A stretch of 42,500 nt of DNA from an uncultured Syntrophales bacterium (GCA_964614365.1 CAZTLA010000002.1:1-42500); one strand, 5' to 3'; shown: positions 9,341 to 29,238, counted from the first letter of the stretch. The notes: generated by a model from the letters alone, not told the origin. Numbers and translations are program-made.

Positions 9341-9347
9341 TGCCGGT

Positions 9348-11437: not shown

Positions 11438-11480
11438 CCCTCCTCGCGAAAATATCCGCACATCCTTATAATCTCCCGAA

Positions 11481-12071
11481 TCAGAAAAACAGCGAATAAC
11501 CGATAACGGCAAAATGACTATCGATGCCGCCGTTGGGGTTTTCTATGCCGGCATTCGACATATGGCGAAACCGGTATCCCAGGTTTACGGCGGAGTCCTT
11601 TGTCAGGAAGTAATAGAGGCCGACGCCTGCCGTATTGGAAAAGATGAATCCATTTGCCTGGTTCGCTGTTACTGCGGAAATGTAATGGGGGCCCACAGTT
11701 CCAAGAACGTATGCGGACACCTTCTCCGTCAGTGGGTACCGGTACTGAAGACCGATACCCACACCGATCTCGAAATCGGTTTGCGGATCGAAAACAGGGT
11801 TGAGCTGGGGTTCTATAATGAAGGAAAGGCTGCCCGCATGATCTTTTAGTTTGGGAATTTGTTTTTTCAAATCCATGCCAAAATGCCAGATCAGCAACAC
11901 CGGCTGGTAATGCCCTTCGGGGATGCTGCCGGTACCCATGCCGGCGATGAATGCCGATTCGCTGAAGGGCCTGTTGCCGGGGGCGTTGTCCGCTGTCGAA
12001 GCAGGACTACTGAAGAACAGGGTGAGGGCAATGAATAAGGCGGTCACGTACGAGAAATGACGTTGATTCAA
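11481..12071 (-). CDS. outer-membrane beta-barrel protein, lipid A deacylase (PagL)/acyloxyacyl-hydrolase-like
   Basis: Signal peptide (ALFIALTLFFSSPAST), alternating beta-strand pattern, C-terminal GYRFRHMSNAG...GYSLFF with a terminal Phe. The likely start is TTG at 12071, preceded by AAGGAGG. Confidence 0.55.
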   Translation of the reverse strand: MNQRHFSYVTALFIALTLFFSSPASTADNAPGNRPFSESAFIAGMGTGSIPEGHYQPVLLIWHFGMDLKKQIPKLKDHAGSLSFIIEPQLNPVFDPQTDFEIGVGIGLQYRYPLTEKVSAYVLGTVGPHYISAVTANQANGFIFSNTAGVGLYYFLTKDSAVNLGYRFRHMSNAGIENPNGGIDSHFAVIGYSLFF

Positions 12072-13231: not shown

Positions 13232-14451
13232 CGTTTTGCTTGCAGCCGTAGCGCCACCGCGTCGATGAATGCTTCCGTCGTAACCCTCCGGTTATGGGGA
13301 TTCTCCTCTGCCACCGAGAGGAGATCGCCGGTCATGATGCCGGATTCCACGGTCTCAACGGCGGCCGCCTCCAGCCGGTTCGCAAAGGAAACCACATCGG
13401 GCGTGCCGTCGAGTTCGCCGCGCTTCCGCAGGCAGCCGGACCAGGCAAAGATCAGAGCCAGGGAATTCGTGGACGTCTCTTCCCCCTTCAGGTGCCGGTA
13501 GTAGTGCTTCTGCACCGTGCCGTGGGCGGCCTCGTACTCGAAGTAGCCCCGGGGCGAGACCAGAACGGAGGTCATCATGGCAAGGCTCCCGTTGGCCGAG
13601 GCGATCATATCGGACATCACGTCTCCGTCATAGTTCTTGAGGGCCCAGAGGATGCCTCCGGGCGTTTTCATGATGCGGGCGACGGCGTCGTCAATAAGCG
13701 TAAAGAAGTATTCAATCCCCGCTTTGCGAAATTTCTCCTTCCAGTTTTTTTCGTATTCCCGTGCAAAGATGTCGCGGAAACGGGTATCGTACGTTTTCGA
13801 AATGGTATCTTTCGTGCTGAACCACAGATCAATCTTCTCATCCATGGCAAAGGCAAAGCACGCCCGCGCGAAACTTTCTATGGAGGCATCGGTGTTATGG
13901 ATGCCCTGGATGACCCCCGGTTCCGTAAATTCCTTTATGGTCCGGCGGAGGGGCGGGCCGCCGTCGGCGGGGGTGAAGAGAAGCTCCGCCTTTCCTGCGG
14001 CAGGTATGCGCATCTCCGCGTTGCTGTAAACATCGCCGTAGGCGTGTCTGCCGATGATGATGGGTTTCTTCCAGGTGGAGACGGAAGGCTTTATGTTCTT
14101 TGCCAGGATGGGCTTCCGGAATACCGTGCCGTCCAGTATTCCCCGGATCGTTCCGTTCGGGCTCTTCCACTGCTTTTTCAGATCGTATTCCCGCACACGG
14201 TCCTCGTTCGGCGTGATGGTGGCGCACTTGACCCCCACGCCGTACTTCATAACGGCCGTTGCCGCTTCAACGGTGACCTGGTCATCGGTTTCGTCGCGGT
14301 GTTTGACGTGCAAGTCGTAGTAGGCGAGTTCCATATCCAAATAGGGGAGCAAGATCGTCTCTTTCACCATCTGCCACATGACCCTGGTCATCTCGTCCCC
14401 GTCCATTTCCACGATGGGCGTTTTAACGTTGATTTTAGCTTTTCCCGACAT
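13228..14451 (-). CDS. icd: NADP-dependent isocitrate dehydrogenase (eukaryote-like ~405-aa type)
   Basis: [30 protein letters not shown]-like, IIGRHA.GD and NYDGDV.SD motifs are present. The start is set at Met 15 (14451). A 4-nt overlap with the rlmN start (13228-13231) indicates an operon. Confidence 0.9.
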
Positions 14452-14532
14452 GTGTGTCTGTACAGTTCCCCTTTCGCTGCATCCCGTTTCCATCCACGAA
14501 ACGACGGCAGAAATATACTTCCAGGCGGGCCG

Positions 14533-15492
14533 TCAAGTGTCTCCGTCGAGGCCTTTCAGGCGAACCGCCTTGACGAAATGTCTGTCGTAGTAAGGTGCTT
14601 TGAGGCTGTCGATCCTTACCCCCTTATTCCGGGATGAAGCGTGGACAAATTCGTTATTTCCGATGTAGATTCCCACGTGTCCCAGCCATTTCCGTGTGTT
14701 GAAAAAAACAAGATCGCCCGCTTCCAGTTCTTCCCGCAGTACGCTTATGCCGATCCGGGCTTGTTCATGGGCAGTTCTGGGGAGGGTGATGCCGAAAAAA
14801 TCATAGATTTTTCTTACAAAGGCGGAACAGTCGAGTCCCTTCACGGAGGAGCCGCCCAGGCGATAGGGCGCACCGAGAAATCCCGTAGCTACTCTGATGA
14901 ACAATTGCCGTTCCTCGGTGTTTTTCCATGTTCCCAGAAGTTCCGCATTCCCGGAATCTTCTGGATCGTTTGCTGCCGTCACGTCTGCCGCGGCGTTTCC
15001 CACTTCGTTTTCCTCCCCGCGGTCCCCATCCGCAATCCGGTGACCGGCATCCTTCTTCCGCAAGATTTGTTCCGTGCTCCGCCCGGATAGGATGAGGACC
15101 GTCCCCGGTTTCAGAGATCGGGTGCGGAGGTGGTTGAGAGACATGATTTCGCCGGCGGGGACGCCCGTTTTATTTGCAATATGGGAGACGGTGTCGCCCT
15201 TCTTTATTACATATTGGGCTGAAGCGTTACGGGAGGGTGATTTGCGTACAAGCGTTCTTCCCGTTTCGCCCGTTAGGGGAACGACAAGTACCTGGCTTGG
15301 TTTGAGGGCGTTTCCCCTCAGGTTGTTGGCTTTTCTGAGGGCCTGGGCGCTTACGCCGAGTTGTTTCGCAATCCCGGAAAGCGTGTCGCCGCGTGCCACG
15401 GTGTAATTCTCACTTGCAAATCCTTCCGGGATGACGAACAACAGGAACAGGACAATGAGTCCCATCCATGGGAAAATCCGCCGTTGCATCAT
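14533..15492 (-). CDS. secreted peptidoglycan hydrolase with two LysM domains and a C-terminal NlpC/P60 domain
   Basis: Two LysM repeats (YTVARGDTLSGIA..., YVIKKGDTVSHIA...). NlpC/P60 catalytic pattern (GLDCSAFV...HVGIY...FVHAS). The start at ATGATG 15492 is preceded by AGGAGG. A signal peptide is present. Confidence 0.85.
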   Translation of the reverse strand: MMQRRIFPWMGLIVLFLLFVIPEGFASENYTVARGDTLSGIAKQLGVSAQALRKANNLRGNALKPSQVLVVPLTGETGRTLVRKSPSRNASAQYVIKKGDTVSHIANKTGVPAGEIMSLNHLRTRSLKPGTVLILSGRSTEQILRKKDAGHRIADGDRGEENEVGNAAADVTAANDPEDSGNAELLGTWKNTEERQLFIRVATGFLGAPYRLGGSSVKGLDCSAFVRKIYDFFGITLPRTAHEQARIGISVLREELEAGDLVFFNTRKWLGHVGIYIGNNEFVHASSRNKGVRIDSLKAPYYDRHFVKAVRLKGLDGDT

Positions 15493-16595: not shown

Positions 16596-17159
16596 ATGAA
16601 TATTGGTGTAAAGCAACATTCCTCAACTATGCACTATAAGATTTTTTCGACGAAAAGAACATTAATAGAACCCCGCCCGTTGCCGGAGAATGCAATATCG
16701 GTATCAGTCGGCCAGGACATCACCGCGCAGGTAAACAAACTGTTCTGTGGCTCTCTGGCAATCAGGGTGGTCACTGCAGGTTCAACCAATGCCTGCGAAC
16801 AGGAGTTGGTGGCGCTGGGGAATTCCTTCTACGATGTGGAACGGTTCGGCGTACACGTCGTCGCTTCCCCCCGACATGCCGATATGCTGATGGTGACGGG
16901 TCCCGTGACTCGCAACATGCGGGAAGCCCTTGCCAGAACATACGATGCCATGCCGGAGCCGAAAATAGTCGTCGCCGTGGGCGATGACGCCATCGATGGG
17001 GGAATTTTCAAGGGTTCGTACGCAGTGCTTGACGGCGCTCATGCCGTTGTGCCTGTTCACTACGAAATTTCCGGCGATCCTCCCTCTGCCGAGAAGATAC
17101 TCTGTTCGCTGCTCGAGATATTGAACGACCTGGACGACGGAGAAAGACGGTATGCTTGA
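16596..17159 (+). CDS. NuoB / hydrogenase small-subunit (HycG/EchC)-like protein lacking three of the four [4Fe-4S] cysteine ligands
   Basis: The NuoB-family core SPRHADMLMVTGPVT....A....YD.MPEPK.VVAVG is conserved. However, GSTNACEQE replaces G(C)CxxCE, AVGDDAIDGG replaces GACAxxGG, and ISGDPP replaces PGCPP. Confidence 0.8.
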   Translation: MNIGVKQHSSTMHYKIFSTKRTLIEPRPLPENAISVSVGQDITAQVNKLFCGSLAIRVVTAGSTNACEQELVALGNSFYDVERFGVHVVASPRHADMLMVTGPVTRNMREALARTYDAMPEPKIVVAVGDDAIDGGIFKGSYAVLDGAHAVVPVHYEISGDPPSAEKILCSLLEILNDLDDGERRYA

Positions 17160-19202
17160 GGGGTTCCTTTCGCCAGCCGGTTTTTTTGTTGTCATCCTGG
17201 CGTTCGCCATGGGGGCGGTCGGCGCTTTGCTTTTCGGCAAAAACGACCGCCTGGCCAATGCGTGGGGGAATGGCTTTGCCGTTTTCGGGTCGGTTTTGTG
17301 TCTGGTTTTTTCCAGCGCCATTTTGTCCACAGGGCTAACCCTGGCTTTCCGCATTTCTTCGTCGTTTCCCCTGCTTTCCCTTTCCTTCCGCATTGACCCG
17401 TTAGCGGCGTTCTTCATGCTGTTGATCTCGTTGATCTCGCTTTTCTGTTCCCTCTTTGCCCTGGGGTACGTGAAGCATTATTACACACAATACAGTGTCG
17501 GCGTCCTGGGTTTTTTTACAACCTCTTCATTATCAGCATGATTGCCGTCACCACGGCCAACCACACCCTGCTTTTCCTTATTGCCTGGGAAATAATGTCC
17601 CTGACGTCGTATTTTTTGGTGATTTTTGAACGCCAGGAAGAAAAGAACATCAGGGCCGGCACGCTCTATTTCATTATGACACATATGGGGACCGCCTTTA
17701 TTATTCTTTCATTCCTGCTCTTGTACCAGGCAACCGGTTCATTCGATTTCGAGACAATCAGAAGCGGCCTCGGTGCTCTTTCACCGCTTCTTAAAAACGC
17801 CATATTCATTTGTACGCTTATCGGTTTCGGCGCCAAGGCCGGCATCATTCCTTTCCACATCTGGCTTCCCCGTGCCCATCCGGCGGCGCCATCCCACGTT
17901 TCTGCGCTCATGTCCGGCGTCATGATCAAAACCGGCATATACATGCTTGTACGGATATACGGGGATATGTTGCCCGGCATACCCATTTGGTGGGGGCTGC
18001 TGCTGTTGGGCATCGGTTCGGTTTCCTCGCTGCTGGGTGTCTTGTACGCCCTCTCCGAGCATGACCTCAAAAGACTGCTTGCCTACCACAGTATCGAAAA
18101 TATCGGGATTATCTTTCTGGGTCTTGGCAGTTCGCTTACGTTCTTGGCGGCAGGCATGAAAGGTCCGGCGATGTTCGGTCTCGTGGCGGCCCTTTACCAT
18201 ACGCTCAATCACGCCACCTTCAAGGCGCTGCTATTTCTGGGAGCCGGTTCGGTGATTGCCGAGACCCATACCCGCAACATCGAGAAGTACGGAGGCCTTA
18301 TCAAAGTTATGCCCCAAACGGCGTTACTGTTTCTGATCGGCTCCATGGCCATCTCCGCCCTGCCGCCGCTCAACGGTTTCTTCAGCGAGTGGATGACCTT
18401 TCAATCCATGTTCCTGGGCGTAACGGCCTTTGCCCAGACGACGAAAATGGTTTTCTTTCTCTCCATAGGGGCGCTTGCCTTCACCGGAGGATTGGCGGCT
18501 GCCTGTTTCGTAAAGGCCTTCGGCGTTGCTTTTCTGGCCAGACCGCGCGGCCGGGAAGCGCAGCATGCGAAAGAGCCGGCCTTGCCGTTGAGACTGGGAA
18601 TGGCCGGCCTCGCCATACTCACCCTGGTTCTGGGTTTTTTTGCCGGCGCCGTTTCCCGCGCATCTGCGGAGCTTGTCACACACTTGGCGAATTTTCAGCA
18701 CGGGGAGGTGTCTTATCCCGTGGCCGGATCATTTGGATTCATGAGCGTCAGCACCGGACTTGCCTCAATTTCCATGCCGGCGATAGGAACGGTTATGGCG
18801 ATATTCACCACTGCACTTATCGCAGCAGTTGCCGCGCTTACCCGAAAACGGAAGATTAAAACCGGGGCAACCTGGGATTGCGGCGCCAACCTGACCCCGC
18901 GCATGGAAATTACGGCGACCGGTTTTTCCCGGTCCATTATCACTATTTTCAAGGGAGTATTGAAACCGACCAGGCAAACGGAAATTGAGTATCACGATGC
19001 CCGGCTGAGGTATTTTCCCAAAAGTGGTACGGTAACGATGGAATTACAAGACGTCTATGCGTCGTATTTCTACCGGCCGCTACAGAGATTAACGATCCGG
19101 CTTGCCGACCAGATCAAGAAAATTCAGGGCGGCAACATCAACGTTTACATCCTGTACATTTTTATAACCTTGACGGGGTTACTGCTGATGTTGGTGATTT
19201 GA
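17152..19202 (+). pseudogene. NuoL/HyfB/MnhA-like antiporter-type membrane subunit, split by a -1 frame change at a T7 run (17511-17517)
   Basis: ORFs 17152-17541 (frame 1) and 17538-19202 (frame 3) together give about 680 aa of an HyfB/NuoL-like protein (AWEIMSL.SYFLV, H.W LP.AH.AAPS.VSALMSG). Reading GGT TTT TTT then shifting -1 gives G F F Y N L F I I S M, a seamless join. This may be a sequencing error, a programmed frameshift or decay. Confidence 0.7.
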
Positions 19203-19212
19203 ACATACCCAT

Positions 19213-20142
19213 ATGAAGATATTTCTCCTGTGGACAATTCAACTGCTGCTGGTGCCGGTGCTTTCACCGTTTTGTATCGGTATCACCAGAAAAATCAAAG
19301 CCCTCTTGCAGAATCGGAGGGGCGCTTCTCCATTCCAGCCCTATAAAGACTTATGGAAGCTGTTCCAGAAAGACGAAGTAATCAGCCGCGATGCTTCCTG
19401 GGTATTTCGTTTTGCGCCGTACCTGATTTTTGCATCCACCCTCATCATCGGCATCAGCATCCCGCTGGTTTCGACGGCGCTGAAGAATGAGCTTACGGGT
19501 GATTTGCTGGTCGTCGTTTACCTGGTCGCTCTGGGTACGTTCTTTCTGGCCCTTGCCGGCATTGATACCGGCGGCGGATTCGGAGGGTTCGGTTCAAGCC
19601 GGGAAATGATGGTCGCCACATTGACCGAAGGGGGGCTGATTCTGTCATTGTTCACCCTGGCCCTGATCGGCCGTACGACCAATCTTTTCTCCATTTCGCA
19701 CGCCATCGCCTCTCTTTCCTTTTATGATTTGCCGCCGGTCATGCTTGCGTTCGTCGGTTTTTTCATCGCTTTGCTTGCCGAAACATGCCGATATCCCTTC
19801 GACAATCCCGCTACCCACCTGGAACTGACCATGATCCATGAGGCCATGATACTTGAATATTCAAGCAAAAGACTGGCGCTTGTCGAATGGGCATCCGCGA
19901 ACAAATTGATGATCTTCATTTCTCTTGGAACGAATCTCTTCCTCCCGTGGGGGGTCGCGCCTTCCCTTGCCATAACGGCGATCATCGTATCCCTGATACT
20001 GTGGATACTGAAGAGTTTGTTGTTTTGCACGGCCATAGCGCTCATCGAATCGAGCATGGCAAAATTCAGAATTTTCCGTTTGCCGGATTTATTATTTACG
20101 TCAGTGATTATCAGCATCATTGCGATAGGGTTGATTATATAA
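19213..20142 (+). CDS. NuoH/HycD/HyfC-like membrane subunit
   Basis: 309 aa. The N-terminal G..RK.KA..Q.R.G.SPFQPYKDL.KL..K and polytopic profile are typical of formate-hydrogenlyase subunit 4 / NuoH. Confidence 0.8.
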   Translation: MKIFLLWTIQLLLVPVLSPFCIGITRKIKALLQNRRGASPFQPYKDLWKLFQKDEVISRDASWVFRFAPYLIFASTLIIGISIPLVSTALKNELTGDLLVVVYLVALGTFFLALAGIDTGGGFGGFGSSREMMVATLTEGGLILSLFTLALIGRTTNLFSISHAIASLSFYDLPPVMLAFVGFFIALLAETCRYPFDNPATHLELTMIHEAMILEYSSKRLALVEWASANKLMIFISLGTNLFLPWGVAPSLAITAIIVSLILWILKSLLFCTAIALIESSMAKFRIFRLPDLLFTSVIISIIAIGLII

Positions 20143-20145
20143 ATT

Positions 20146-20802
20146 ATGTCCCGAACCATGCCTGAAATTCTCCTGTTTCTGGAAACCGTGATCTTTACTG
20201 CGGCGGTTTTCTTGCATTTGACGAAGAAGAACTTCACCGCTGTGCGCCTCTACATGGCGCAGTCCACGGCCATCGCCGCGCTGCTGGTGCTTTCCTCCTT
20301 CGACAAGACATCAACATTGCTGACGCTTGCAATCATTTCCACGATTGCGGTGAAAACAATCATTGCCCCCTATTTCTTTTTTGGTCTGATAAAAAAACAT
20401 CGGCTTAAATTTACCGTAAGCACGTATCTGAATACGCCCATAACCCTGCTCGTGATAGCCGCGCTGGTAGCGATCACCCAGATGAATTTCTTCAGACCCC
20501 TGGCGTTCCTGGCACCGGCGGGAAAGAACATGCTGCTGCTTTCCGTCGCCACCATATTGATATCGCTGTTTTTGACTATAAACAGAAAGGGTGCGCTTTC
20601 CCAAATGCTCGGCATCCTCTCGCTGGAGAACGGCATCGTCTCCTTTGCCCTGTTCGCAGGGTTGGAACAGAATGCGGGTCTGCAACTGGGAATAACCTTT
20701 AACATTCTCATCTGGGTCATCATCGCCACGGTCTTTGCCTCCATGATCTACCGGCAATTTGGGTCCCTCGATGTGACCACGATGAAAAAACTGACGGAGT
20801 GA
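20146..20802 (+). CDS. HyfE-like (hydrogenase-4 component E / NuoK-related) membrane subunit
   Basis: 218-aa polytopic protein with the GILSLENGI motif seen in HyfE/EhaH-type subunits. Its position between the NuoH-like and NuoN-like genes matches hyf/ech-type operons. Confidence 0.7.
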   Translation: MSRTMPEILLFLETVIFTAAVFLHLTKKNFTAVRLYMAQSTAIAALLVLSSFDKTSTLLTLAIISTIAVKTIIAPYFFFGLIKKHRLKFTVSTYLNTPITLLVIAALVAITQMNFFRPLAFLAPAGKNMLLLSVATILISLFLTINRKGALSQMLGILSLENGIVSFALFAGLEQNAGLQLGITFNILIWVIIATVFASMIYRQFGSLDVTTMKKLTE

Positions 20803-20806
20803 GCGG

Positions 20807-22248
20807 ATGGCGCTGCTTTTGCTGATCATAACCCCGCTTATTGCCGCACTCACGTCTCTGTCCGTGCGAAGAGCGGCCCGGCCTCTGGAGATTGCGGCGG
20901 CGGTTGCCGCCCCCGTGGAACTGCTCTCCGTACTTGCGATCGCGTCGGCGGTCTACCATAACGGCCGCTGCGAATTCGGCGCTTATTTTTCCGTCGATTC
21001 GACGGGAATGATTGTTCTGGCAACCGTCGCCCTGGTCGGGTTCGCAGCGTCTTACTACTCCATCGGCTACCTCTGCCAGGAGGTGGCGAAGCAGATTATC
21101 GGCTTCCATCGGGTAAAGCAGTATTTCGTGCTTTTCCACCTGTTTCTCATGGCCATGTTTTTTGCGATTATGACCGTCAATCCCATCATGATGTGGATCG
21201 CCATCGAAGCCACTACCCTTTCGACGGCCTTCCTGATCAGTTTTTATAACAAACCATCGGCGATGGAAGCGGCCTGGAAGTACCTGATAATCAATTCGGT
21301 GGGCTTGCTGCTGGGATTTTTCGGCACGCTGCTGTTCTCCTCTCCCGTCGTCCCCGCCGCAGATACGTTCCTCACCTGGCGGACGCTGCGAGCCTGAATC
21401 CCCTGCTGGTGAAGATGGCCTTCATCTTCGTGCTCATCGGCTACGGCACCAAGGCGGGCCTGGCGCCGATGCATACCTGGCTGCCGGATGCCCACAGCAA
21501 AGCTCCGTCGCCGATCAGCGCGCTGTTATCAGGAGCACTGCTCAACGTTGCCCTGCTCGCCATATTGAAATTCAAAATGATCACTGACGTCGCCTTGGGG
21601 GTGACTTTTTCGCAGGGGCTGCTGATTTTTTTCGGTACCCTGTCGATAGGTATCCCCGCGTTCATCATCATCGTACAGAGAAATTACAAACGCCTCTTTG
21701 CCTATTCCAGCATCGAGCACATCGGTATTGTGACACTGGGCTTCGGCTTCGGGGGTATCGGTTCCTTTGCGGCTCTGCTGCATATGATTTATCATTCGCT
21801 GGCAAAATCGGTCCTGTTTTTTTCCGCCGGAAACATCTTTCTGAAATACGGTTCTACAAAGATCGATAACGTGAAGGACGTCTTGCAGATGCTGCCGGTC
21901 ACCGGAAGGATTTTGCTGTTGGGCTTTCTCGCCATCGCCGGCGTGCCGCCCTTCGGCATTTTTATCACGGAGATATATATACTGGCCGCCGGTATCGCGG
22001 GCCACCCGGTCGTGGTCATTGCGGTGCTGGTATTTCTGGCGCTGATTTTTATCGGGTTCTTGAGGTACGTCAAGGGCATGGCGTTTAGCGGCCCTGCCCG
22101 GTCGCTTTCATTCGTTTCATCCGGGGAATCCAATTATTTGACCGTTGTTCCGCCCGTTGCCCTGCTTGCGGTTCTGATTACCCTTGGATTCTACCTGCCG
22201 CCACCGCTGAAGGCATCGCTGGACGCGGCGGCAGCGTTAATCCGCTAA
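20807..22248 (+). pseudogene. NuoN/NuoM/HyfF-like antiporter-type membrane subunit, split by a -1 frame change near 21385-21397
   Basis: ORFs 20807-21397 (frame 2) and 21409-22248 (frame 1). Frame 1 is already open upstream and reads ...ASLNPLLVKMAFIFVLIGYGTKAGLAPMHTWLPDAHSKAPSPISALLSG (Proton_antipo_M signature). One extra base in AGCCTG (for example AGCCCTG) would fuse the two parts. Confidence 0.7.
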
Positions 22249-22256
22249 CGGGAACT

Positions 22257-23837
22257 ATGACGAAGAAGAATCTCATAAAGAAATACCTTCCCGTGGGAAT
22301 ATCCGCCCGTGAACACGGCAACCTGATCGTCTATGAATTGCCGGCAGGGAAGATCGTTGCGGAGTGCGAAAAACTTTATCGCCGTTACCGTCTGCCGCTG
22401 AAGACCATTGCCGCATTCGATGAAAGGGACGCAGGGGGATTCTTCCGGATAATGTACCTCTTCGGCATGCCCACGGAAAACATTTTTCTGGCGCCGTACC
22501 TGTTGGTGGAAAATGATTTCCCCTCGCTGACGCCTTCGATTCACGAAGCATCTACCTATGAGAGGAAGATAAAGACCTTTTTCGGCCTGATCCCCCAAGG
22601 CCATCCGGATCCAAGGCCTTTGATCCTTCACGAAAACTGGCCGGACAATGTTTTCCCCCTGAGAAAAGATTTTCCCGCGAATCTAAGACCGAAAATCGCA
22701 GCGGGTGAGTTTCCTTTCCGGAAAATCGATGGTGAGGGGATATATGAAATACCCGTTGGGCCGGTCCATGCCGGCATTATCGAGCCCGGCCATTTCCGGT
22801 TCAGCGTTGCCGGGGAAGAAATACTCTTCCTTGAGCCGAGGCTCGGCTATTCCCACAAAGGCTGTGAAAAATTGTTCGAAACATTGGCGCCTCCGGATAA
22901 ACTCAGATTGGCGGAGCGCATCTCCGGCGACAGCTCCTACAGTCATTCGCTGGCTTTCTGCTTAGCGCTGGAATCCCTGAGCGGCACCGTTGCGGGGGAG
23001 AAAAGCAGCTACGTGAGGGTCATTTTTTTCGAACTGGAAAGACTTGCCAACCATCTGGGCGATATCGGCGCCATTATGACGGATACGGGCTTCAATTTTG
23101 GCGGAGCCCATGGCGCACGCTTACGGGAAATTGTCATGCGGATGAACGAACGCCTTACGGGCAGCCGGTTCCTGAGGGGAGTCAACAAGGTGGGCGGAGT
23201 TTCAAAAGACATGGCGTCCGATGCCGCGATGAGTTTGGACCGGGAACTGGACGGATTGGGCGTTGATTTTTCCGAGGTCATGGCCGTAACGGAGGAAAGT
23301 AATTCGCTTATAAACCGCCTCAAGAACACCGGGGTGCTGGCCTACGACATCGCGCGGGACCACGGGGTGATCGGTGTTGCCGGGAAAGCGCTTGGCCTTG
23401 CCGCCGACGCCAGAATCGATTATCCTTATGCCGCCTACGCAAGGCTCCCCTTTGACGTGGCAACGGAGAAGAGTGGTGACGTGCATGGCAGGTTTTATGT
23501 TCGCGTCAGGGAGACATTCTCTTCGATCGGACTTATGAAAAAAGCCTTGCAAACGCTCCGGCAGCTTGATGGCGGCTCCGTCTCAGATGGTCCCGTCTCA
23601 GACGTACCTGCTTTCAGGAAGAATTCTTATGCCGTTGGGATTGTTGAAGGGTGGCGGGATGATATCGTATACCTCGTCGCTACCGATTCCTCCGGCGCCG
23701 TAAGCCGTGTTGATGTGCGTGATCCCTCATTTCTGAACTGGACCGTCCTGGGGCATGCAGCCCGCGGCAACATGGTGCCCGATTTCCCTCTCATCAATAA
23801 AAGTTTCAACCTTTCCTACTCCGGGAATAACCTGTAG
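22257..23837 (+). CDS. fused NuoC-NuoD / HycE-like 'large subunit' lacking all four NiFe cysteine ligands
   Basis: 526 aa. It has a NuoC-like N-terminus and then PVGPVHAGIIEPGHFRF, typical of group-4 large subunits/NuoD. The N-terminal ligand motif reads ERISGDSSYSH (about 22914-22946) instead of ER.CG.C...H. The C-terminus reads SFNLSYSGNNL (23793-23834) instead of DPC..C..R. Confidence 0.8.
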   Translation: MTKKNLIKKYLPVGISAREHGNLIVYELPAGKIVAECEKLYRRYRLPLKTIAAFDERDAGGFFRIMYLFGMPTENIFLAPYLLVENDFPSLTPSIHEASTYERKIKTFFGLIPQGHPDPRPLILHENWPDNVFPLRKDFPANLRPKIAAGEFPFRKIDGEGIYEIPVGPVHAGIIEPGHFRFSVAGEEILFLEPRLGYSHKGCEKLFETLAPPDKLRLAERISGDSSYSHSLAFCLALESLSGTVAGEKSSYVRVIFFELERLANHLGDIGAIMTDTGFNFGGAHGARLREIVMRMNERLTGSRFLRGVNKVGGVSKDMASDAAMSLDRELDGLGVDFSEVMAVTEESNSLINRLKNTGVLAYDIARDHGVIGVAGKALGLAADARIDYPYAAYARLPFDVATEKSGDVHGRFYVRVRETFSSIGLMKKALQTLRQLDGGSVSDGPVSDVPAFRKNSYAVGIVEGWRDDIVYLVATDSSGAVSRVDVRDPSFLNWTVLGHAARGNMVPDFPLINKSFNLSYSGNNL

Positions 23838-24111: not shown

Positions 24112-24612
24112 GTGGGCAATACCCTAAACAACATGGATATGAAAAAATTCAAACATCCGGCTTTTCTGTTTAATGCTTTTGTCCTGGCGAGTTTCATAAT
24201 TCTCAACTGCATAGCGGCCGGTTATTCCGAAGGAGCTCGGCGGTTTCCCCAGTTCGTTTTGGGGATCGGGATAGCAGTCAGCGTATTCTGGATGGCAATC
24301 TATTTTGTTTTTCCCAAGGCCCTGCATTTTATCGAAACCCAGGAAGAGTATGAAGAGACCGATGCGGCAAACCCCACGCGATTCTACCTGGCGTGTGCGT
24401 GCGTGATCTTTTCCGTTCTCGTCGGATACCTCCTGGGTTTTCTCTTTCTTGTCCCGGCCGTTTTCCTGGGTTACGGCCTTATGCTCGGCGACAGAAGGAA
24501 TCTTGGCATATTAATTATCGTGGCCATCATCACAACCGCGCTTTTTTATCTCGGATTTGATTACCTGCTGAACATCCCGCTGCTGAAAGGCGCGATTTTG
24601 GATCTGAGTTAG
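24112..24612 (+). CDS. tctB: tripartite tricarboxylate transporter small membrane subunit TctB
   Basis: About 160-aa four-TM protein immediately upstream of tctA. The start may be Met 8 (24133). Confidence 0.75.
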   Translation: MGNTLNNMDMKKFKHPAFLFNAFVLASFIILNCIAAGYSEGARRFPQFVLGIGIAVSVFWMAIYFVFPKALHFIETQEEYEETDAANPTRFYLACACVIFSVLVGYLLGFLFLVPAVFLGYGLMLGDRRNLGILIIVAIITTALFYLGFDYLLNIPLLKGAILDLS

Positions 24613-24641
24613 TAACCCATAGCGAAGATGGAGAACGCAAG

Positions 24642-26141
24642 ATGGTAAATTGGGATATTGTGCTTCAAGGCATAGAATTGACTCTTACCGTGCAAAACAT
24701 ACTTCTTCTCGTCGCCGGGTTTTTTCTGGGAGTGATCGTGGGGATCCTGCCCGGAATCGGCCCTGCTGCGGGGATGGCGCTTATTCTTCCCTTCAGTTTC
24801 AACCTGCCTGCCGGTAGCGCTCTCATTTTGATGAGCGGCGTTTATCTGGCCTCAAATTATGGAGGCTCCATCGCGGCAATCCTGGTGAATACTCCGGGGG
24901 AATCGGCCAGCGCCGCCACGCTCCTGGACGGCTATCCCATGACCCAGAAGGGGCGCGCCGCTGAGGCGCTGGGGATATCGGCCGCCGCTGGCTCTCTGGG
25001 AGGCATGCTGGGTCTTATCGCCCTGATCTTTACCGCCCCGCTCCTTGCCCGCATGGCGTTGCGATTTGGCCCGCCGGAGAACGCCCTGCTTGCCCTTTTT
25101 GCGCTTTCCGTTATTTCAGCCATCGTGAAACGGAATCCCATCAAGGGACTGATCTCTGCCTGCATTGGGCTGGCCCTGGCAACCGTGGGAATGGACATGG
25201 TGAGCGGCGATTACCGCTTCGTCTTCGGCCTGGATGATCTTCAGGACGGCGTACCATTCATTCAGACGATGGTGGGGCTGTTTGCCGTTGCCCAGGTTAT
25301 TATCCTGGCGGAGTATAACCGGGCTATCAGCAAGGTTGATCTGGCGGGATCGGGGTTGCTTGCCGGCGTCAGGACGACGTTCAAGCATCCCCTGACGCTA
25401 ATGCGTTCGTTCATCATCGGCATCTGGATAGGGGCGCTTCCCGCCGCCGGCAGAAGTACGGCCTCTTTCATGGCCTATGCTGAGGAGGTGCGGTCTGCCA
25501 AGGATAAATCCCAGTTCGGCAAGGGGAATCCCGTAGGGGTGATCGCAAGCGAGATGGCCAACAATTCATGCGCCATGGGGGACCTGATTCCAACCCTCTC
25601 CCTGGGCATTCCCGGCAGTGTGGGGGCCGCCGTCTTCCTCGGCATCATGATCATTTTCGGCGTGATACCCGGATACAAGGTTTTTGTTGATCACGGCAGA
25701 GAAGTCTACAGCCTCTTTACGGCCTTCTTCATTGAAAACCTGCTCATTCTGATCCTTGGGCTGACCTACGCGAAATATCTGGCCAAGATCACCGTCGTCC
25801 GGAACGATGTCATCGTTCCCCTGATCCTGGTCTTTTCCCTGCTCGGGAGTTACTCCATCAGGAATTCCTATTTCGATCTGGGCCTGACCTCGATTTTCGG
25901 GATACTGGGATACTTCATGGCCAAATACGGATACTCCCCGGTGCCGCTCGTTCTGGCCCTGGTACTGGGCCCCATGCTGGAAAAGAATTTCCAGCGGGCG
26001 ATGATCATCAGCGAAGGGTCGTACACAATTTTCCTTCAGTCGGGAATAAGCATTGCGCTCGTGGCGATGACCGTATTCTCGCTGTGTTATCCATACCTTT
26101 CGGTTCTTTTGGAAAAATTGAAGAATAGAGATAGTGCCTGA
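24642..26141 (+). CDS. tctA: tripartite tricarboxylate transporter large permease TctA
   Basis: 499-aa polytopic protein with the TctA-family motifs G...GILPGIGP, YGGSI.AIL.N.PGE and LPG.G...A.F..Y. Confidence 0.9.
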   Translation: MVNWDIVLQGIELTLTVQNILLLVAGFFLGVIVGILPGIGPAAGMALILPFSFNLPAGSALILMSGVYLASNYGGSIAAILVNTPGESASAATLLDGYPMTQKGRAAEALGISAAAGSLGGMLGLIALIFTAPLLARMALRFGPPENALLALFALSVISAIVKRNPIKGLISACIGLALATVGMDMVSGDYRFVFGLDDLQDGVPFIQTMVGLFAVAQVIILAEYNRAISKVDLAGSGLLAGVRTTFKHPLTLMRSFIIGIWIGALPAAGRSTASFMAYAEEVRSAKDKSQFGKGNPVGVIASEMANNSCAMGDLIPTLSLGIPGSVGAAVFLGIMIIFGVIPGYKVFVDHGREVYSLFTAFFIENLLILILGLTYAKYLAKITVVRNDVIVPLILVFSLLGSYSIRNSYFDLGLTSIFGILGYFMAKYGYSPVPLVLALVLGPMLEKNFQRAMIISEGSYTIFLQSGISIALVAMTVFSLCYPYLSVLLEKLKNRDSA

Positions 26142-26221
26142 TAAACCTTAATAAAGAAGCTGTTAGCCTGAACTTAACCGGCGGGAGAAAGGATTCCGCC
26201 ACTCTTGAAGGAGGGTCTGTT

Positions 26222-27187
26222 ATGAAAAGAATCGTTGTGGCCGCGTGTGTTATCGTGCTGTGCTTATCGTTCTTTACTCTTTCGGCTTTTTCCGAAGATA
26301 AATTCCCCTCGAAGCCGATCACTATCAACGTGGGACAGGCTGCGGGTGGAGGCACGGACATCATTGCCCGCACCCTGGAGTCTTTTCTTTCAAAAGAACT
26401 CAAGGTTCCCGTCATTGTTCAAAATCAGACCGGGGCGGGCGGCGACATGGTTAATAATTTCATCTGGAAAGCCAAACCGGACGGATACAATCTCGTTATG
26501 ACCGTTCTCCCCTCTTTCACCAACCGGGAATTGATCAGAAAGCAGCCCTTCAAGATTTTGGAGATGAGTTTTATTTATGGGATTGCCGGTGGAGACTTTA
26601 ATGCGATCATGGTTCCCTTCAACTCGCCCATAAAGAACTTTCAGGATCTGAAAAAAGCATCCGCCGAGAAGGCGCTTTCCTGCGGCGGCGTTACGCCCGG
26701 CTCCAATTCCTGGTACGCCTCCATCCTGCTTCGCGAGGCAACGGGCATCAAGTTTAAATATGTTCCCTATGACAGCGGCACGGAGGCGGCAACCGCCGCG
26801 GGCGGCGGGCATGTGGACCTGGCCATTACCTCCATCATTTCCGCAAAGCAGCCGGTCCAGAACAAGCTGGTCCGTTTAATCGCCACCTTCGGCGGAACGC
26901 GCGATACGGACTTTCCGGATGTGCCCACGATGGTTGACCTGGGCCACAAGGAGATTCACTTCGCCACCCGTCAAGGGTTGGCTGGTCCTCCGGGGATGCC
27001 CAAGGATATCGTCAATAGTATTGCTAAAGCCGCAGCAAAGGCCGTTCAGGAGCCGAAATTCAAGGAAATCGCGGACAGGCAGGGGTTCACCGTTGATCCC
27101 ATGATGGGACCGGAATTCCACGAATGGGCCATGGGCATGAGCGCACAGGCCAGAAAATTCCTCACGAAGGCCGGGGAAATAAAGTAA
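26222..27187 (+). CDS. tctC: TctC/Bug-family periplasmic substrate-binding protein
   Basis: 321 aa with a signal peptide. It has the P.KPIT..V...AGGG.D..AR, N..GAGG and VPY.G...A..A..GGHVD patterns of the Bug/TctC family. Confidence 0.85.
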   Translation: MKRIVVAACVIVLCLSFFTLSAFSEDKFPSKPITINVGQAAGGGTDIIARTLESFLSKELKVPVIVQNQTGAGGDMVNNFIWKAKPDGYNLVMTVLPSFTNRELIRKQPFKILEMSFIYGIAGGDFNAIMVPFNSPIKNFQDLKKASAEKALSCGGVTPGSNSWYASILLREATGIKFKYVPYDSGTEAATAAGGGHVDLAITSIISAKQPVQNKLVRLIATFGGTRDTDFPDVPTMVDLGHKEIHFATRQGLAGPPGMPKDIVNSIAKAAAKAVQEPKFKEIADRQGFTVDPMMGPEFHEWAMGMSAQARKFLTKAGEIK

Positions 27188-27200
27188 AGGAACGTCATCC

Positions 27201-27881
27201 ATGGGGAAAAACCTTTCTCTTCCCTCTTTGAACAATGTGGGAACCCTACCCCACCGGGTGTATCTGCTCCTGGAAGATGCAATCCTCCGGGGCAAAATAA
27301 AACAGGGCGACCGCCTGATTGAGGATGATCTGTCGACTGTCATGGGCGTCAGCCGCGCCCCCATCAGGGAGGCCTTCCGGCTGATGGAAAAGGAGGGCCT
27401 CATCAAGATCATCCCCCGCAAGGGGGCGATCGTCAGTTCCGTCTCCCGGGAGGATGTGGCGGAAATCTACGAGGTATCCTCTGTCCTGGAAGGTCTTGCA
27501 GCGCGCCTCTTCTGCGAACGGGCTACGGAAACCGAGCTTAAGAAGATGAAGAAAATCTGCCGGGATATGGAAACGCAGATCGAAAAAAAGAACCTGCTCA
27601 AATACCGGAAGCTGAACCGGGATTTCCACGAAGTGTTTATCAACGGCTGCGCAAATAAGAAAATAAAAGAGGTCTATGGCTCGTTTCAGAAACAGATCCA
27701 CTGGTTTCAGAATGTTTCCCTGTCCTCCCAGGGGCGACCGGAGATTTCTTTGAAAGAGCACAAAAGCATTCTCGATGCCTTTTTGAAAAAGGACTGTGAC
27801 GCCGCGGAACATGCGGCACAAGATCACGTTCGGCGTGCTGCAAGCTATTTTCTTAGTAAAACAGACAACAGAGGAGACTGA
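27201..27881 (+). CDS. GntR-family transcriptional regulator with FCD (FadR-C-terminal-like) domain
   Basis: N-terminal winged HTH (L.E..L....GVSR.PIREA...L..EGL....PRKGA.V) plus an alpha-helical C-terminal domain of about 150 aa. Confidence 0.85.
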   Translation: MGKNLSLPSLNNVGTLPHRVYLLLEDAILRGKIKQGDRLIEDDLSTVMGVSRAPIREAFRLMEKEGLIKIIPRKGAIVSSVSREDVAEIYEVSSVLEGLAARLFCERATETELKKMKKICRDMETQIEKKNLLKYRKLNRDFHEVFINGCANKKIKEVYGSFQKQIHWFQNVSLSSQGRPEISLKEHKSILDAFLKKDCDAAEHAAQDHVRRAASYFLSKTDNRGD

Positions 27882-27883
27882 AC

Positions 27884-28555
27884 ATGGCGCAGGCAATCAG
27901 AACCATTGAGCGCGTTCCGGCGGAACTGGCAACCAGGTACAAGGATTTGAGTTCCGCAACGGTGCACGAGGCATCCGGAGCCAAGGGGGCGCTTTCATCG
28001 CGGATAAAGCCCATCTCCCCGGAAATGAAGGTGTGCGGGCCTGCCGTGACTGTGAAGGTAAGGCCGGGAGATAACCTGATCCTCCACAAGGCGATCTACG
28101 TCGCCCGGGCGGGCGATGTCATTGTGGCCGATGCGGACGGTTGTACCGAAGCCGGCCCCTGGGGTGAGATCATGGCTGTGGCCGCTATGGCGCGGGGCAT
28201 TGCCGGACTGGTGATCAATGGATCGGTGCGCGATTCCCAGGCCATGAGCGATCTGGGATTCCCCGTGTTTTCCTGTGCTCTCTGCATCAAGGGCACGGAG
28301 AAGCTTTCCCTGGGGCTCATCAACCATCCCCTGAATCTGGATAATGTCACGATTGCCCCCGGCGACCTGATCCTGGGCGATCGCGACGGTGTGGTGGTGG
28401 TGAGGCGGGAAGAAGCGGTTCAGGTGCTCGAAAAGTCCCTGGCCCGCGAGGAAAAAGAAAAAACGATTAAGGAACGATTGCGAGCAGGCGAATCCACACT
28501 TGATATTTACGGTTTCGGCGAGATTTTGAAGACGCGAGGCCTTACCGAAGAATAG
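27884..28555 (+). CDS. RraA-like / 4-hydroxy-4-methyl-2-oxoglutarate (HMG/CHA) aldolase-family protein, paralog 1
   Basis: 223 aa with the RraA-fold pattern (GD.I.......A.WGE......A...G..G.VI.GSVRD......GFPVF). The conserved R-D pair is present. Confidence 0.75.
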   Translation: MAQAIRTIERVPAELATRYKDLSSATVHEASGAKGALSSRIKPISPEMKVCGPAVTVKVRPGDNLILHKAIYVARAGDVIVADADGCTEAGPWGEIMAVAAMARGIAGLVINGSVRDSQAMSDLGFPVFSCALCIKGTEKLSLGLINHPLNLDNVTIAPGDLILGDRDGVVVVRREEAVQVLEKSLAREEKEKTIKERLRAGESTLDIYGFGEILKTRGLTEE

Positions 28556-28566
28556 GAAGAAACGTT

Positions 28567-29238
28567 ATGGAAGCGAAAGAATTTGACGCAACGTATCGCA
28601 AGCGCCTGGAAAAGCTCGCCACCACCAATATCGCGGACGCCATGGACAAGGTGGGGATCCGCGGGGCGGTGATCGGCATCAAGCCCCAGTACGACTGCCC
28701 GAAGATCACGGGCCGGGCGGTGACGATCAAGATAACTGCCGCCGGAGCGGTGGCCTCGAAATATCACCTGGGTGTGAGGGCCATCGATGCGGCAAGCTCC
28801 GGGGACGTGATCATCATCGACAACCGCGGCGACTTGAACAACAACTGCTGGGGAGAAATACTTTCCATGGGTTCCAAGATGAAGGGAATATCCGGCGTTG
28901 TCGTGGACGGTGCGGCGCGCGACATCGATGCCTGCAAGGAATTCGGTTTCCCCGTCTATGCGCGGGGCACGGTTCCCATCACGGCGCGGGGCAGGATCAT
29001 GGAGGAATCGTTCAACGAGGTGATCCGGGTAGGCGATGTGCAGGTAAGCCCAGGGGATATCGTCATGGCCGACATAAACGGCGTGGTGATCATTCCCGTA
29101 GCAAGGCTTGATGAGGTGCTTACGGCGGCGGAGGGCCTTATGGAGAAGGAACTGGCCATGGTGGAGGAACTCAGAAGAGGCGTCTCCATGTTGGAGGTGG
29201 ATCAGAAGTTTGCTTATGAGGCGATGTTAAAAAAGTAG
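28567..29238 (+). CDS. RraA-like / HMG-CHA aldolase-family protein, paralog 2
   Basis: 223 aa with the same fold pattern (GDVIIID......CWGEILS...K..GISGVVVDGAARD......FGFPVYARG). Confidence 0.75.
   Translation: MEAKEFDATYRKRLEKLATTNIADAMDKVGIRGAVIGIKPQYDCPKITGRAVTIKITAAGAVASKYHLGVRAIDAASSGDVIIIDNRGDLNNNCWGEILSMGSKMKGISGVVVDGAARDIDACKEFGFPVYARGTVPITARGRIMEESFNEVIRVGDVQVSPGDIVMADINGVVIIPVARLDEVLTAAEGLMEKELAMVEELRRGVSMLEVDQKFAYEAMLKK

Follow-up and report, generated by a model that had tools for sequence, protein, structure and literature searches.

An Ehr-type operon split by two frameshifts

The window (the whole stretch of 42,500 nucleotides analysed here) carries at 16596-23837, on the + strand, an operon of the energy-converting-hydrogenase-related (Ehr) type, an assignment supported by profile matches, alignments to PDB sequences, and a fold model and fold search. 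The genes run S-A-B-C-D-L: NuoB/HycG-like, HyfB-like, NuoH/HycD-like, HyfE-like, HyfF-like and a fused NuoCD/HycE-like gene. Pfam and NCBIfam bear out the coordinates and gene order given in an earlier note on this DNA, but the HyfB-like and HyfF-like genes, which that note took as intact, are each frameshifted into two ORFs.

16596-17159, +: ehrS, NuoB/HycG-like small subunit, 187 aa; PF01058 (Oxidored_q6), 84.7 bits
16779-17084, +: former [4Fe-4S] ligand positions of ehrS (GSTNACEQE 16779-16805, VGDDAIDGG 16977-17003, ISGDPP 17067-17084); alignment to HycG and PSST
17152-17541, +: HyfB/NuoL-like antiporter subunit, N-terminal fragment, 129 aa; NF005086, profile positions 9-122
17511-17517, +: frameshift 1, a T7 run (loss of one T, T8 to T7) in the HyfB-like gene; comparison with relatives
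17538-19202, +: HyfB/NuoL-like C-terminal fragment, 554 aa from the first ATG; NF005086 positions 126-667, 600 bits
19213-20142, +: NuoH/HycD-like membrane subunit, 309 aa; PF00146 (NADHdh), 152 bits
20146-20802, +: HyfE-like membrane subunit, 218 aa; NF008556, E=4.4e-15, below the family cut-off
20807-21397, +: HyfF/NuoN-like antiporter subunit, N-terminal fragment, 196 aa; NF005044, profile positions 7-188
21378-21397, +: frameshift 2, junction of a 16-nt deletion in the HyfF-like gene; comparison with 13 relatives
21409-22248, +: HyfF/NuoN-like C-terminal fragment, 279 aa from GTG (277 as called); NF005044 positions 218-493, 299 bits
22257-23837, +: ehrL, fused NuoC-NuoD/HycE-like large subunit, 526 aa; PF00329 and PF00346 (Complex1_30kDa and 49kDa)
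22917-22949, +: former NiFe L1 motif RISGDSSYSHS, aa 221-231, Cys replaced by S223 and S226; alignments to HycE and Thermus thermophilus Nqo4
23802-23834, +: former NiFe L2 motif SFNLSYSGNNL, aa 516-526, at the C-terminus, Cys replaced by S520 and G523; HycE alignment

The NCBIfam profiles stand for hydrogenase 4 subunit B (NF005086), hydrogenase 4 subunit F (NF005044) and a hydrogenase 4 membrane subunit (NF008556), and a Proton_antipo domain lies in both antiporter-like genes (HyfB-type, 17152-19202; HyfF-type, 20807-22248). For ehrS, gene callers take Met12 (nt 16629) as the start, giving 176 aa, and this exact 176-aa protein already has a database record. The large, small and HyfB-like subunits have their best matches, in sequence and in fold, in E. 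coli hydrogenase-4 (Hyf)/formate hydrogenlyase (7Z0S), and homologues of HyfB, HyfC, HyfE, HyfF, HyfG and HyfI are all present in the operon. Unlike Hyf/formate hydrogenlyase, however, the window has no NiFe site, Fe-S clusters, HyfA/HyfH/HycF, HyfD, FdhF partner or hyp genes; a Pfam scan of its ~40 ORFs found no hyp maturation or endopeptidase gene. The operon comprises six gene families only and encodes no NuoA, J, K, I or E/F/G, the HyfE-like protein giving just a sub-threshold NuoK-type match (PF00420, 18.2 bits against a cut-off of 26.1). As the earlier note had stated, no HycF/NuoI-type 2x[4Fe-4S] subunit is encoded in the operon: by motif scan, the sole CxxCxxCxxxC pair in the 42.5 kb (32384-32503) belongs to an unrelated DHO_dh-Fer4 gene.

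Both peripheral subunits have lost their cofactor ligands

A residue-by-residue alignment of ehrL with E. coli HycE (7z0s_E, E=1.5e-69) places RISGDSSYSHS opposite RVCGICGFAHS (L1) and NLSYSG opposite DPCYSC (L2), so that the four NiFe cysteine positions are now S223, S226, S520 and G523. The loss claimed in the earlier note is thus confirmed at the aligned positions, although the replacements are Ser, Ser, Ser and Gly, not the Ser/Leu it had given. R[IV]SGD[ST]S is the prevailing L1 form in 120 ehrL homologues, and INKSFNLSYSGNDL (L2 region) is present in 85 of the 120. S223 is kept in at least 90% of 78 Ehr sequences, whereas the seven true NiFe relatives from the same scan have Cys there and carry RICGxC / ELCYxCxDR. 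The pocket residues S223, D225, D276, S520, Y521 and D525 hardly vary across Ehr, whether an FeS cluster is present or not; D525N in ehrL is a window-only substitution at a site invariant elsewhere. In T. thermophilus Nqo4, the residue aligned with G224 of ehrL is the Tyr of RMDY, the complex I quinone-site Tyr, which we take to be Tyr87 in Nqo4 numbering. An AlphaFold model of ehrL (pTM 0.83) has 7z0s_E as its top fold match (TM 0.82).

The closest PDB match of ehrS is HycG (7z0s_G, E=1.4e-24). Relative to HycG and complex I PSST, CGGCNGCE has become AGSTNACE, GACG/GSCA has become GDDA and PGCPP has become SGDPP. The ligand positions are now T64, C67, D131 and D161, which agrees with the earlier note's count of one cluster cysteine kept out of four. 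Among the 120 closest ehrS homologues, GSTNACEQE recurs in 101, GDD in 104 and GDPP in 119; deeper clade members differ at these positions (T/D/S, C/E, D/G, D/N). For each peripheral subunit, 120 homologues show these substitutions with little variation, so the ligand loss is not due to chance. Having lost both the NiFe site and the final iron-sulfur cluster, and with no subunit of the NuoI/HycF type, the complex has no means of carrying electrons.

Two familiar identities were considered for the operon and rejected. A group 4 [NiFe]-hydrogenase is ruled out by the absence of all four NiFe cysteines, the small-subunit [4Fe-4S] and a HycF/HyfH subunit, and of Hyp genes from the window, and respiratory complex I (Nuo) by the change of the quinone-site Tyr to Gly224 and the absence of the N2 cysteines from the NuoB-like protein.

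In the sample, complete cofactor loss is confined to one Ehr subclade

The window shares its six subunit families with known Ehr complexes (ehrABCDLS; Geobacter GSU0739-45, Nitrospira, AOA, Sulfobacillus, Methylacidiphilum), and in both the RxCGxC / DPCxxC NiFe ligands are replaced by SGD[ST]x / [LQ]SY[SA]G; Mycobacterium tuberculosis Rv0082-87 has also been named Ehr (PMC6728331). Most Ehr operons have the order A-B-C-D-L-S, whereas the window places the small subunit first, and Rokubacteria and Acidobacteria loci have an upstream ArsR regulator that the window lacks.

Our sample of GTDB loci held 78 NiFe-less large subunits, 73 of them with a paired small subunit. All four [4Fe-4S] cysteines (CCCC) are retained in 60 of these 73 operons, 10 of which bear a fused 2x[4Fe-4S] NuoI-like domain (for cofactor-retaining Ehr, see PMC6349859, Suppl. 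Note 4). A proximal small-subunit cluster is thus typical of most Ehr, in contrast to the window. Twelve operons, the window included, have lost at least three small-subunit cysteines, and all 12 are small-subunit-first and lack a ferredoxin domain. This FeS-less subclade spans Syntrophales, Thermoleophilia, CPR/Patescibacteria and others at 50-82% identity, its small subunits keeping 0-1 of the four cluster cysteines. Total cofactor loss is therefore not a general Ehr trait and is confined to one subclade in the sample; the earlier note's assignment to Ehr holds (a NiFe-less group-4/NuoCD homologue with the Ehr subunit set), but the absence of redox cofactor sites that it reported for the operon does not extend to the class as a whole.

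The window large subunit is 57-63% identical to those of Daviesbacteria, Wildermuthbacteria, Magasanikibacteriota, Howlettbacteria and other Patescibacteria, with the motifs in common. It differs from the CPR-type Ehr clade (Jaffe et al. 2020, PMC7304191) in that its host is Syntrophales-like by closest named matches, not CPR, and its copy is frameshifted. The part of that paper at hand discusses the large-subunit cysteines and mentions neither small-subunit cluster loss nor adjacency to the atp operon.

Conserved ion-channel residues and ATP synthase neighbours

In the HyfB-like protein (once repaired, E=7.5e-81 to HycC, 7z0s_C), E147, K229, K260, H350, H354, K358 and E413, corresponding to the TM5 Glu, TM7 Lys, TM8 Lys, TM11 His/His/Lys and TM12 Glu, are 93-100% conserved across the family. 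The HyfF-like E134, K216, H330 and K334 (repaired protein) are invariant and as conserved as their HyfB-like equivalents, K70 and E161 of the HyfE-like protein are likewise invariant, and the acidic residues of the NuoH-like TM5-6 loop/E-channel (E131, E139, E190, D197, E204, E210, E215, E225) are at least 93% conserved. Judged from these Glu/Lys/His relay residues, the ion machinery of the family is intact. The cofactor-less peripheral subunits are strongly conserved within the FeS-less subclade, as are the key channel Lys/Glu/His; mean identity to the window over 10 loci of different phyla is 66% for B, 65% for H, 61% for CD, 60% for L, 60% for F and 59% for E. These identities and the near-invariant pocket motifs indicate that the FeS-less family is under selection, not vestigial.

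F-type ATP synthase genes adjoin the operon in seven loci, mostly CPR, which suggests a link to ion-motive force. In five (L005, L017, L077, L085, L086), atpG-atpD-atpC lies directly upstream, with a gap of 40 nt in L086, and in two (L004, L088) atpC flanks the operon, which in L004 is placed between atpC and atpD/G/A. Speaking against such a link, the adjacency is absent from the window and from L001, L002, L006, L010, L011, L012, L079 and L087.

The window copy is probably a recent pseudo-operon

The two ORFs of each antiporter-like gene lie in different frames (129 + 554 aa and 196 + 279 aa). Adding one T at the T7 run restores GVLGFFYNLFIISMIAV, in agreement with GFFYN[TL]FI of all relatives, and relative L017 reads GGTTTTTTTTAT (T8) at this position; the final 7 residues of the N-terminal HyfB-like fragment are out of frame, and the homologous frame resumes at about 17517. 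At the second lesion, GGCGGACGCTG (21378-21388) encodes WRTL in one frame and ADAA in the next, with a premature TGA at 21395-21397. All 13 relatives compared have W-x-x-L followed by 6-7 residues and [NDSH]P here, whereas in the window 5 residues are missing and the frame is lost. Relative L002 holds GGCGGGC twice, 16 nt apart, exactly at this spot, and the lesion is a 16-nt deletion between direct repeats, a classic product of replication slippage.

In all ~85 relatives examined both genes are unbroken, each forming a single ORF (about 680 and 480 aa), which makes the window copy probably a pseudo-operon of recent origin. Substitutions at invariant sites are not in excess (13 in the window against 4-19 in near relatives), so the inactivation, if real, is recent. 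We think it improbable that the operon is intact in the organism, through assembly or sequencing errors at one or both sites or through bypass of the T7 run by -1 ribosomal or transcriptional slippage. Frameshift 1 taken singly could be a sequencing error or be rescued by slippage: it sits in a homopolymer, and U_UUU_UUU, a -1 slippery heptamer of the textbook kind, would give exactly the conserved GFFYNLF. The coding quality of the operon is otherwise undecayed, and frameshifts abound in related long-read contigs, L085 among them. Frameshift 2, however, is not of the homopolymer-error type, and no relative has split genes or needs a slippery site. Moreover, both lesions fall inside a 7.2-kb operon while ~25 flanking genes have full-length profile coverage; two errors spread uniformly over 42.5 kb would be so placed with p of about 0.03.

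A candidate redox-inert ion translocator

Ehr function is still called unknown in literature up to 2025 (PMC10284858, PMC10432482, PMC12342949), and a role in pH homeostasis was proposed earlier (PMC6688271). The reading we prefer, which we hold with roughly even confidence, is that of an Ehr variant that translocates ions but is redox-inert, probably serving as an Mrp-like antiporter or as a converter of ion gradients; the copy in the window was probably inactivated recently. In intact relatives, a two-protein cap (NuoB-like and NuoCD-like) would sit on a NuoH-like channel joined to two antiporter-like subunits and would move ions without redox chemistry, most likely by Mrp-like cation/proton antiport or ion-gradient conversion. 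Via the NuoH loop, the polar pocket replacing the NiFe site (S223, D225, D276, S520, D525) would serve as a gate or as a sensor of ion or proton occupancy. Architecture and context point to the antiporter role. The Mrp antiporter (7QRU, 6Z16, 7D3U), a redox-free relative and the proposed functional analogue, shares with the window MrpA/MrpD-type subunits with conserved TM5 Glu, TM7 Lys and TM12 Lys/Glu; against this role, Mrp has MrpB/E/F/G and no NuoH/NuoB/NuoCD modules, the reverse of the window. Membrane-bound sulfane reductase (MBS/Mbx; 6U8Y), which is homologous to window B, CD, L and F, descends from group-4 hydrogenases, has lost the NiFe site and contains Mrp-like membrane subunits. 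It is reported in its structure paper to be still redox-active through Fe-S clusters, which are gone here.

It is not obvious why a cap with a structural role only should require so conserved a former active-site pocket, whose conservation agrees equally well with a site for a ligand or substrate. A rival, albeit an unlikely one, is the earlier note's suggestion of a non-redox chemistry tied to ion flow: the Ser/Asp pocket would bind and convert a small substrate (e.g. by hydration, decarboxylation or hydrolysis), the reaction driving ion pumping or being driven by the gradient, as in DAB (DabAB) or the cyanobacterial Cup/NDH-1MS CO2-hydration modules, where antiporter-like subunits are repurposed for non-redox chemistry. 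The near-invariance of the pocket regardless of FeS cluster speaks for it, as does the conservation of the peripheral subunits, at least as high as that of the membrane subunits, and proximity to ATP synthase in CPR would suit an ion-motive-force generator in organisms without respiratory chains. DAB and Cup depend, however, on a carbonic-anhydrase-like partner (DabA, CupA); the window has no such domain, and where the earlier note had suggested looking for co-occurring soluble partners, neither a carbonic-anhydrase-like nor any other recurrent partner gene emerged from the 15 FeS-less loci. Nor was a recognisable catalytic metal-binding triad found; in deeper members, different residues stand in for the cluster ligands of the small subunit, and a NuoD-like catalytic pocket free of metal or quinone is without precedent.

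We regard as very improbable indeed a complex that is still redox, passing electrons from a separate module (formate dehydrogenase/NuoEF, as for FDH-Ehr) to a cofactor with non-cysteine ligands. In certain ferredoxins Asp does serve as an Fe-S cluster ligand, but in this clade 0-1 of the four cluster cysteines are left and their substitutes do not recur as a consistent set of ligands. The NuoB-like and NuoCD-like proteins each contain only three Cys, without a CxxC; a NuoI domain is absent, and no fdh or nuoEF gene adjoins any FeS-less locus. Many FeS-less hosts are, moreover, CPR bacteria, which to our knowledge are generally held to be without quinones and respiratory chains. In favour of electron transfer are the FDH-Ehr hypothesis published for Margulisbacteria and Saganbacteria (PMC6349859) and the greater abundance of Geobacter Ehr subunits on formate (PMC7894505).

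Beyond the earlier note, the analysis brings out the double frameshift of this copy and the confinement of iron-sulfur loss, in our sample, to a single subclade of Ehr.

An Ehr operon stripped of its redox sites

Eight ORFs follow one another on the + strand of the window between 16596 and 23837 with hardly any intergenic space. Pfam and NCBIfam profiles identify them as the subunits of an energy-converting-hydrogenase-related (Ehr) complex.

Subunits of the Ehr operon in the window, identified with Pfam and NCBIfam
16596-17159, + strand: NuoB/HycG-like small subunit (B)
17152-17541 and 17538-19202, + strand: HyfB/NuoL-like antiporter subunit, in two pieces
19213-20142, + strand: NuoH/HycD-like subunit (H)
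20146-20802, + strand: HyfE-like subunit (E)
20807-21397 and 21409-22248, + strand: HyfF/NuoN-like antiporter subunit, in two pieces (F)
22257-23837, + strand: fused NuoC-NuoD/HycE-like large subunit (CD)

The top solved relative of the large (E = 1.5e-69), small (1.4e-24) and HyfB-like (7.5e-81) subunits is E. coli formate hydrogenlyase (PDB 7Z0S), and the 2026 PDB copy holds no closer structure. When the large subunit is modeled as a monomer with AlphaFold (pTM 0.83), its best superposition is on HycE (TM 0.82); confidence is low at the beta1-beta2 loop (residues 147-200) and the C-terminus (492-526). Scanning the window for promoters and terminators gave nothing over shuffled expectation at useful positions.

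HMMER alignment to HycE sets RISGDSSYSHS opposite RVCGICGFAHS and NLSYSG opposite DPCYSC, so that the positions of the NiFe cysteines are taken by Ser223, Ser226, Ser520 and Gly523. The earlier note had correctly called the loss of these cysteines, although its description of the replacements as Ser/Leu was slightly off, the actual residues being Ser/Ser/Ser/Gly. In alignment to T. thermophilus Nqo4, Gly224 stands opposite the quinone-site tyrosine of RMDY. Alignment of the small subunit to HycG (AGSTNACE for CGGCNGCE) leaves a single cluster cysteine, as the earlier note had read, and the other ligand motifs, GxC(G/A) and PGCPP, have become GDDA and SGDPP. The B and CD subunits contain three cysteines each and no CxxC, and the sole CxxCxxCxxxC pair in the window sits in an unrelated DHO_dh-Fer4 gene (31169-32641), in line with the claim that no NuoI/HycF-type subunit is encoded. 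With the ligands replaced, no CxxC in either subunit and the only ferredoxin-like pair elsewhere, the operon lacks a NiFe site, a proximal cluster and a HycF/NuoI subunit alike.

A cofactor-free subclade of a widespread family

Homologues of the large subunit number in the thousands. The best 120, at 57-82% identity, belong to Syntrophales, Thermoleophilia, Actinobacteria and many Patescibacteria/CPR lineages, and almost all of them carry R[IV]SGD[ST]S... and the C-terminal INKSFNLSYSGNDL. A GTDB scan with one genome per species returned at least 591 relatives, and we analyzed the loci of the best 80 of these together with eight contigs fetched by protein (loci L001-L088). The NiFe cysteines are missing from 78 of 85 large subunits, which we class as Ehr for that reason; the other seven are true NiFe enzymes (RICGxC / ELCYxCxDR).

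Among these best loci, 73 Ehr operons have a paired small subunit, and 60 of them retain all four cluster cysteines; ten of the 60 carry a fused 2x[4Fe-4S] NuoI-like domain, in agreement with PMC6349859 Suppl. Note 4. One operon has lost one cluster cysteine, and 12, the window included, have lost three or four. All operons of this last, FeS-less kind begin with the small subunit and are devoid of a ferredoxin domain. The FeS-less set includes the window's clade at 50% identity or above (L001-L012, L017) and two deeper Patescibacteria-type loci (L077 and L079). In the best 120 small subunits the altered motifs are nearly fixed (GSTNACEQE in 101, GDD in 104, GDPP in 119), but the deeper FeS-less members vary at all four former ligand positions (T/D/S; C/E; D/G; D/N). 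We therefore do not read the replacements as a new metal site, and a conserved one in the small subunit is ruled out.

In a Chloroflexota MAG (L080), the large subunit (~8657-11488) has the full set of NiFe cysteines, yet the small subunit that follows (from 11507) has lost three of the four cluster cysteines (E, C, E, D) and carries one ferredoxin motif; pairing a NiFe-complete large subunit with a cluster-poor small one is odd for a working hydrogenase. Two Nitrospirota loci (L023, L055) carry two complete Ehr operons in tandem, and their pocket motifs (SGTSS...SGTDM versus SGDTT...SGNDL) suggest functional divergence of the paralogues.

Throughout the literature of 2014-2025, Ehr is listed as "function unknown" (PMC4378227, PMC10284858, PMC10432482, PMC12342949), including in a 2025 survey that places it in about half of Nitrospirales genomes (PMC12342949). 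The family is widespread: beyond the hosts named in the literature (Nitrospira, ammonia-oxidising archaea, Geobacter and M. tuberculosis), the GTDB scan found it in Acidobacteria and CPR bacteria. A 2020 paper (PMC7304191) noted a monophyletic clade of CPR Ehr whose large subunits lack the cysteines. In the portions of the Ehr literature available to us, a comparison that stops short of Marreiros et al. 2013, we found no statement of the small-subunit cluster loss that makes the clade fully cofactor-free, of its presence, at 50-82% identity, in Syntrophales, Thermoleophilia and further phyla, or of its tie to the atp operon in CPR bacteria.

Two lesions in the window's copy

The earlier note treated the HyfB-like and HyfF-like genes as intact, but both change frame here. 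In the HyfB-like gene the change falls within a T7 run (17511-17517); with one more T the sequence becomes GVLGFFYNLFIISMIAV, collinear with the GFFYN[TLAI]F of every relative, and one relative (L017) has T8 at this site. In the HyfF-like gene the reading frame shifts at 21378-21397, where 13 of 13 clade relatives have W-x-x-L, six or seven further residues and [NDSH]P. The window's site is out of frame and five residues short, equal to a 16-nt deletion, and the junction, GGCGGACGCTG, can be read as WRTL, which is conserved, or, in the next frame, as ADAA. At the same place in the clade member L002, GGCGGGC occurs twice, exactly 16 nt apart, so the lesion has the look of a deletion by strand slippage between direct repeats. 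These comparisons were made without the closest large subunits, P0002 (82%) and P0003 (80%), whose contigs are too short to span either site.

Natural gene splits are ruled out, since the HyfB-like (~680 aa) and HyfF-like (~480 aa) genes are single ORFs in every relative examined (88 loci). A programmed -1 frameshift conserved at U_UUU_UUU is ruled out as well: in relatives GFFYN is read in frame from differing codons, and slippage could not rescue the HyfF-like lesion. Generalised assembly error fits poorly with the profile coverage of some 25 flanking genes, which is full-length and indicates that errors are not general in this contig. The Patescibacteria contig L085 (176 kb) looks quite different, with almost every gene shredded into short ORFs, atp and Ehr genes included, as is typical of uncorrected long-read assembly errors; in the window the Ehr operon alone is hit. 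The chance that two uniformly placed lesions would both fall inside the operon is ~0.03. Exact-sequence look-up of the four gene fragments in a collection of 15 billion proteins gave no match outside the contig of the window.

For the T-run lesion, a sequencing error or a bypass by slippage is conceivable, but the 16-nt deletion is hard to explain in either way, and this copy of the operon is probably dead. It carries 13 unique substitutions at otherwise invariant positions, one of them D525N in the C-terminal motif; near relatives carry 4-19, so any inactivation would be recent. The interest lies with the Ehr family more than with this copy.

ATP synthase genes recur beside FeS-less loci

The operon's neighbors in the window are unrelated to it. 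Upstream lie genes for an MtgA-type transglycosylase and an NlpC/P60 protein, and downstream is a TctBAC tricarboxylate uptake/catabolism cluster (24112-38524) with TctB, TctA, TctC, a GntR/FCD regulator, three full-length RraA-like paralogues in tandem (27884-29903), PrpD/MmgE, a DHO_dh-2x[4Fe-4S] protein, large and small aconitase subunits, a second TctC and an SDH_alpha-like protein. Positions 1-11246 form a low-GC block (39-47% versus 52-58% elsewhere), a surface-polysaccharide cluster (HpcH/HpaI aldolase, CMP-sugar cytidylyltransferase, B12-binding radical SAM enzyme, DegT aminotransferase, GT2, Bac_transf, Polysacc_synt_2) that is probably a horizontally acquired glycan island. Two long ORFs, 32598-33866 (-) and 13294-14637 (+), have no Pfam match, and the latter, which overlaps an opposite-strand isocitrate/isopropylmalate dehydrogenase gene, is probably spurious. 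No gene could be assigned to the interval 32.6-33.9 kb.

Across FeS-less loci, F-type ATP synthase is the one recurrent neighbor. The genes atpG-atpD-atpC lie directly upstream of the Ehr operon in L005, L017, L077, L085 and L086 (40 nt away in L086), while L004 and L088 have a divergently oriented atpC immediately upstream; in L004, from Daviesbacteria, the operon sits between atpC and atpD/G/A, apparently inserted, on the opposite strand. Named CPR lineages account for four of the seven atp-adjacent loci, and the adjacency is absent from L010, L079, L087 and the non-CPR members. No partner enzyme recurs beside FeS-less loci, where atp genes alone do so, in a subset; SulP/STAS transporters occur near 3 loci, a count too low to carry a conclusion.

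In Rokubacteria and some Acidobacteria (L026, L044, L046, L048, L049, L050, L057), FeS-containing operons that begin with the small subunit have an ArsR-family HTH gene immediately upstream, an arrangement presumably paralleled in M. tuberculosis, where Rv0081 (ArsR) lies upstream of Rv0082-87. Rv0081-Rv0087 have been named as Ehr (PMC6728331).

Pocket and ion relay outlast the cofactors

Mean identity to the window over ten loci from different phyla is 66% for B, 65% for H, 61% for CD, 60% for L, 60% for F and 59% for E; judged by sequence identity, the cofactor-less peripheral subunits are constrained no less than the membrane subunits. Five residues set Ehr apart from the nearest true hydrogenases (S223, D276, P490, S520 and G523), D225 is found in most Ehr, and the pocket residues are identical with or without the small-subunit cluster. 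Ion-relay residues are likewise 93-100% conserved in both groups: E147, K229, K260, H350, H354, K358 and E413 in the HyfB-like subunit; E134, K216, H330 and K334 in the HyfF-like; K70 and E161 in the HyfE-like; and, in the loop and E-channel of the NuoH-like, E131, E139, E190, D197, E204, E210, E215 and E225. Given this conservation and the loss of cofactor ligands, the proton- or ion-moving machine is intact and the electron-moving machine gone.

The FeS-less subclade is in effect a natural deletion experiment, in which strong purifying selection persists after all electron-carrying cofactors have been lost and the former active-site pocket and ion-relay residues stay unchanged. This speaks for a main function of Ehr that does not depend on electron transfer. 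A hidden redox function by way of an external module, of the FDH-Ehr kind (PMC6349859, PMC7894505), is unlikely for this clade.

Beyond the observed homology, ligand loss, conservation, intact relay residues and atp adjacency in some loci, we infer that FeS-less Ehr translocates ions without redox chemistry, and we favor an Mrp-like cation/proton antiporter or gradient converter. Ions would cross the membrane through the complex with no redox chemistry involved, and the NuoB/NuoCD cap with its conserved polar pocket would gate the NuoH-like channel. Such a model fits because Mrp offers a redox-free precedent and because ATP synthase is co-located in CPR bacteria, which are not known to have respiratory chains. 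It also fits the role in pH homeostasis proposed earlier for Ehr (PMC6688271). The main rival is that the pocket might itself carry out a non-redox chemistry coupled to ion flow, by analogy with DAB or Cup; strong conservation of the pocket speaks for this, but neither a partner gene nor a catalytic metal signature supports it.

The most far-reaching reading, which we put forward as a long shot, would make FeS-less Ehr a self-contained, redox-independent ion machine that shares one circuit with F-type ATP synthase. The complex would then fill the place of a missing generator, or H+/Na+ converter, of membrane potential in CPR bacteria. Its power or its gating may come from a non-redox reaction in the Ser/Asp pocket standing where the NiFe site used to be. 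The position of Ehr beside or inside the ATP synthase operon of CPR bacteria is a new contextual clue to how ion-motive force may be handled in minimal organisms.
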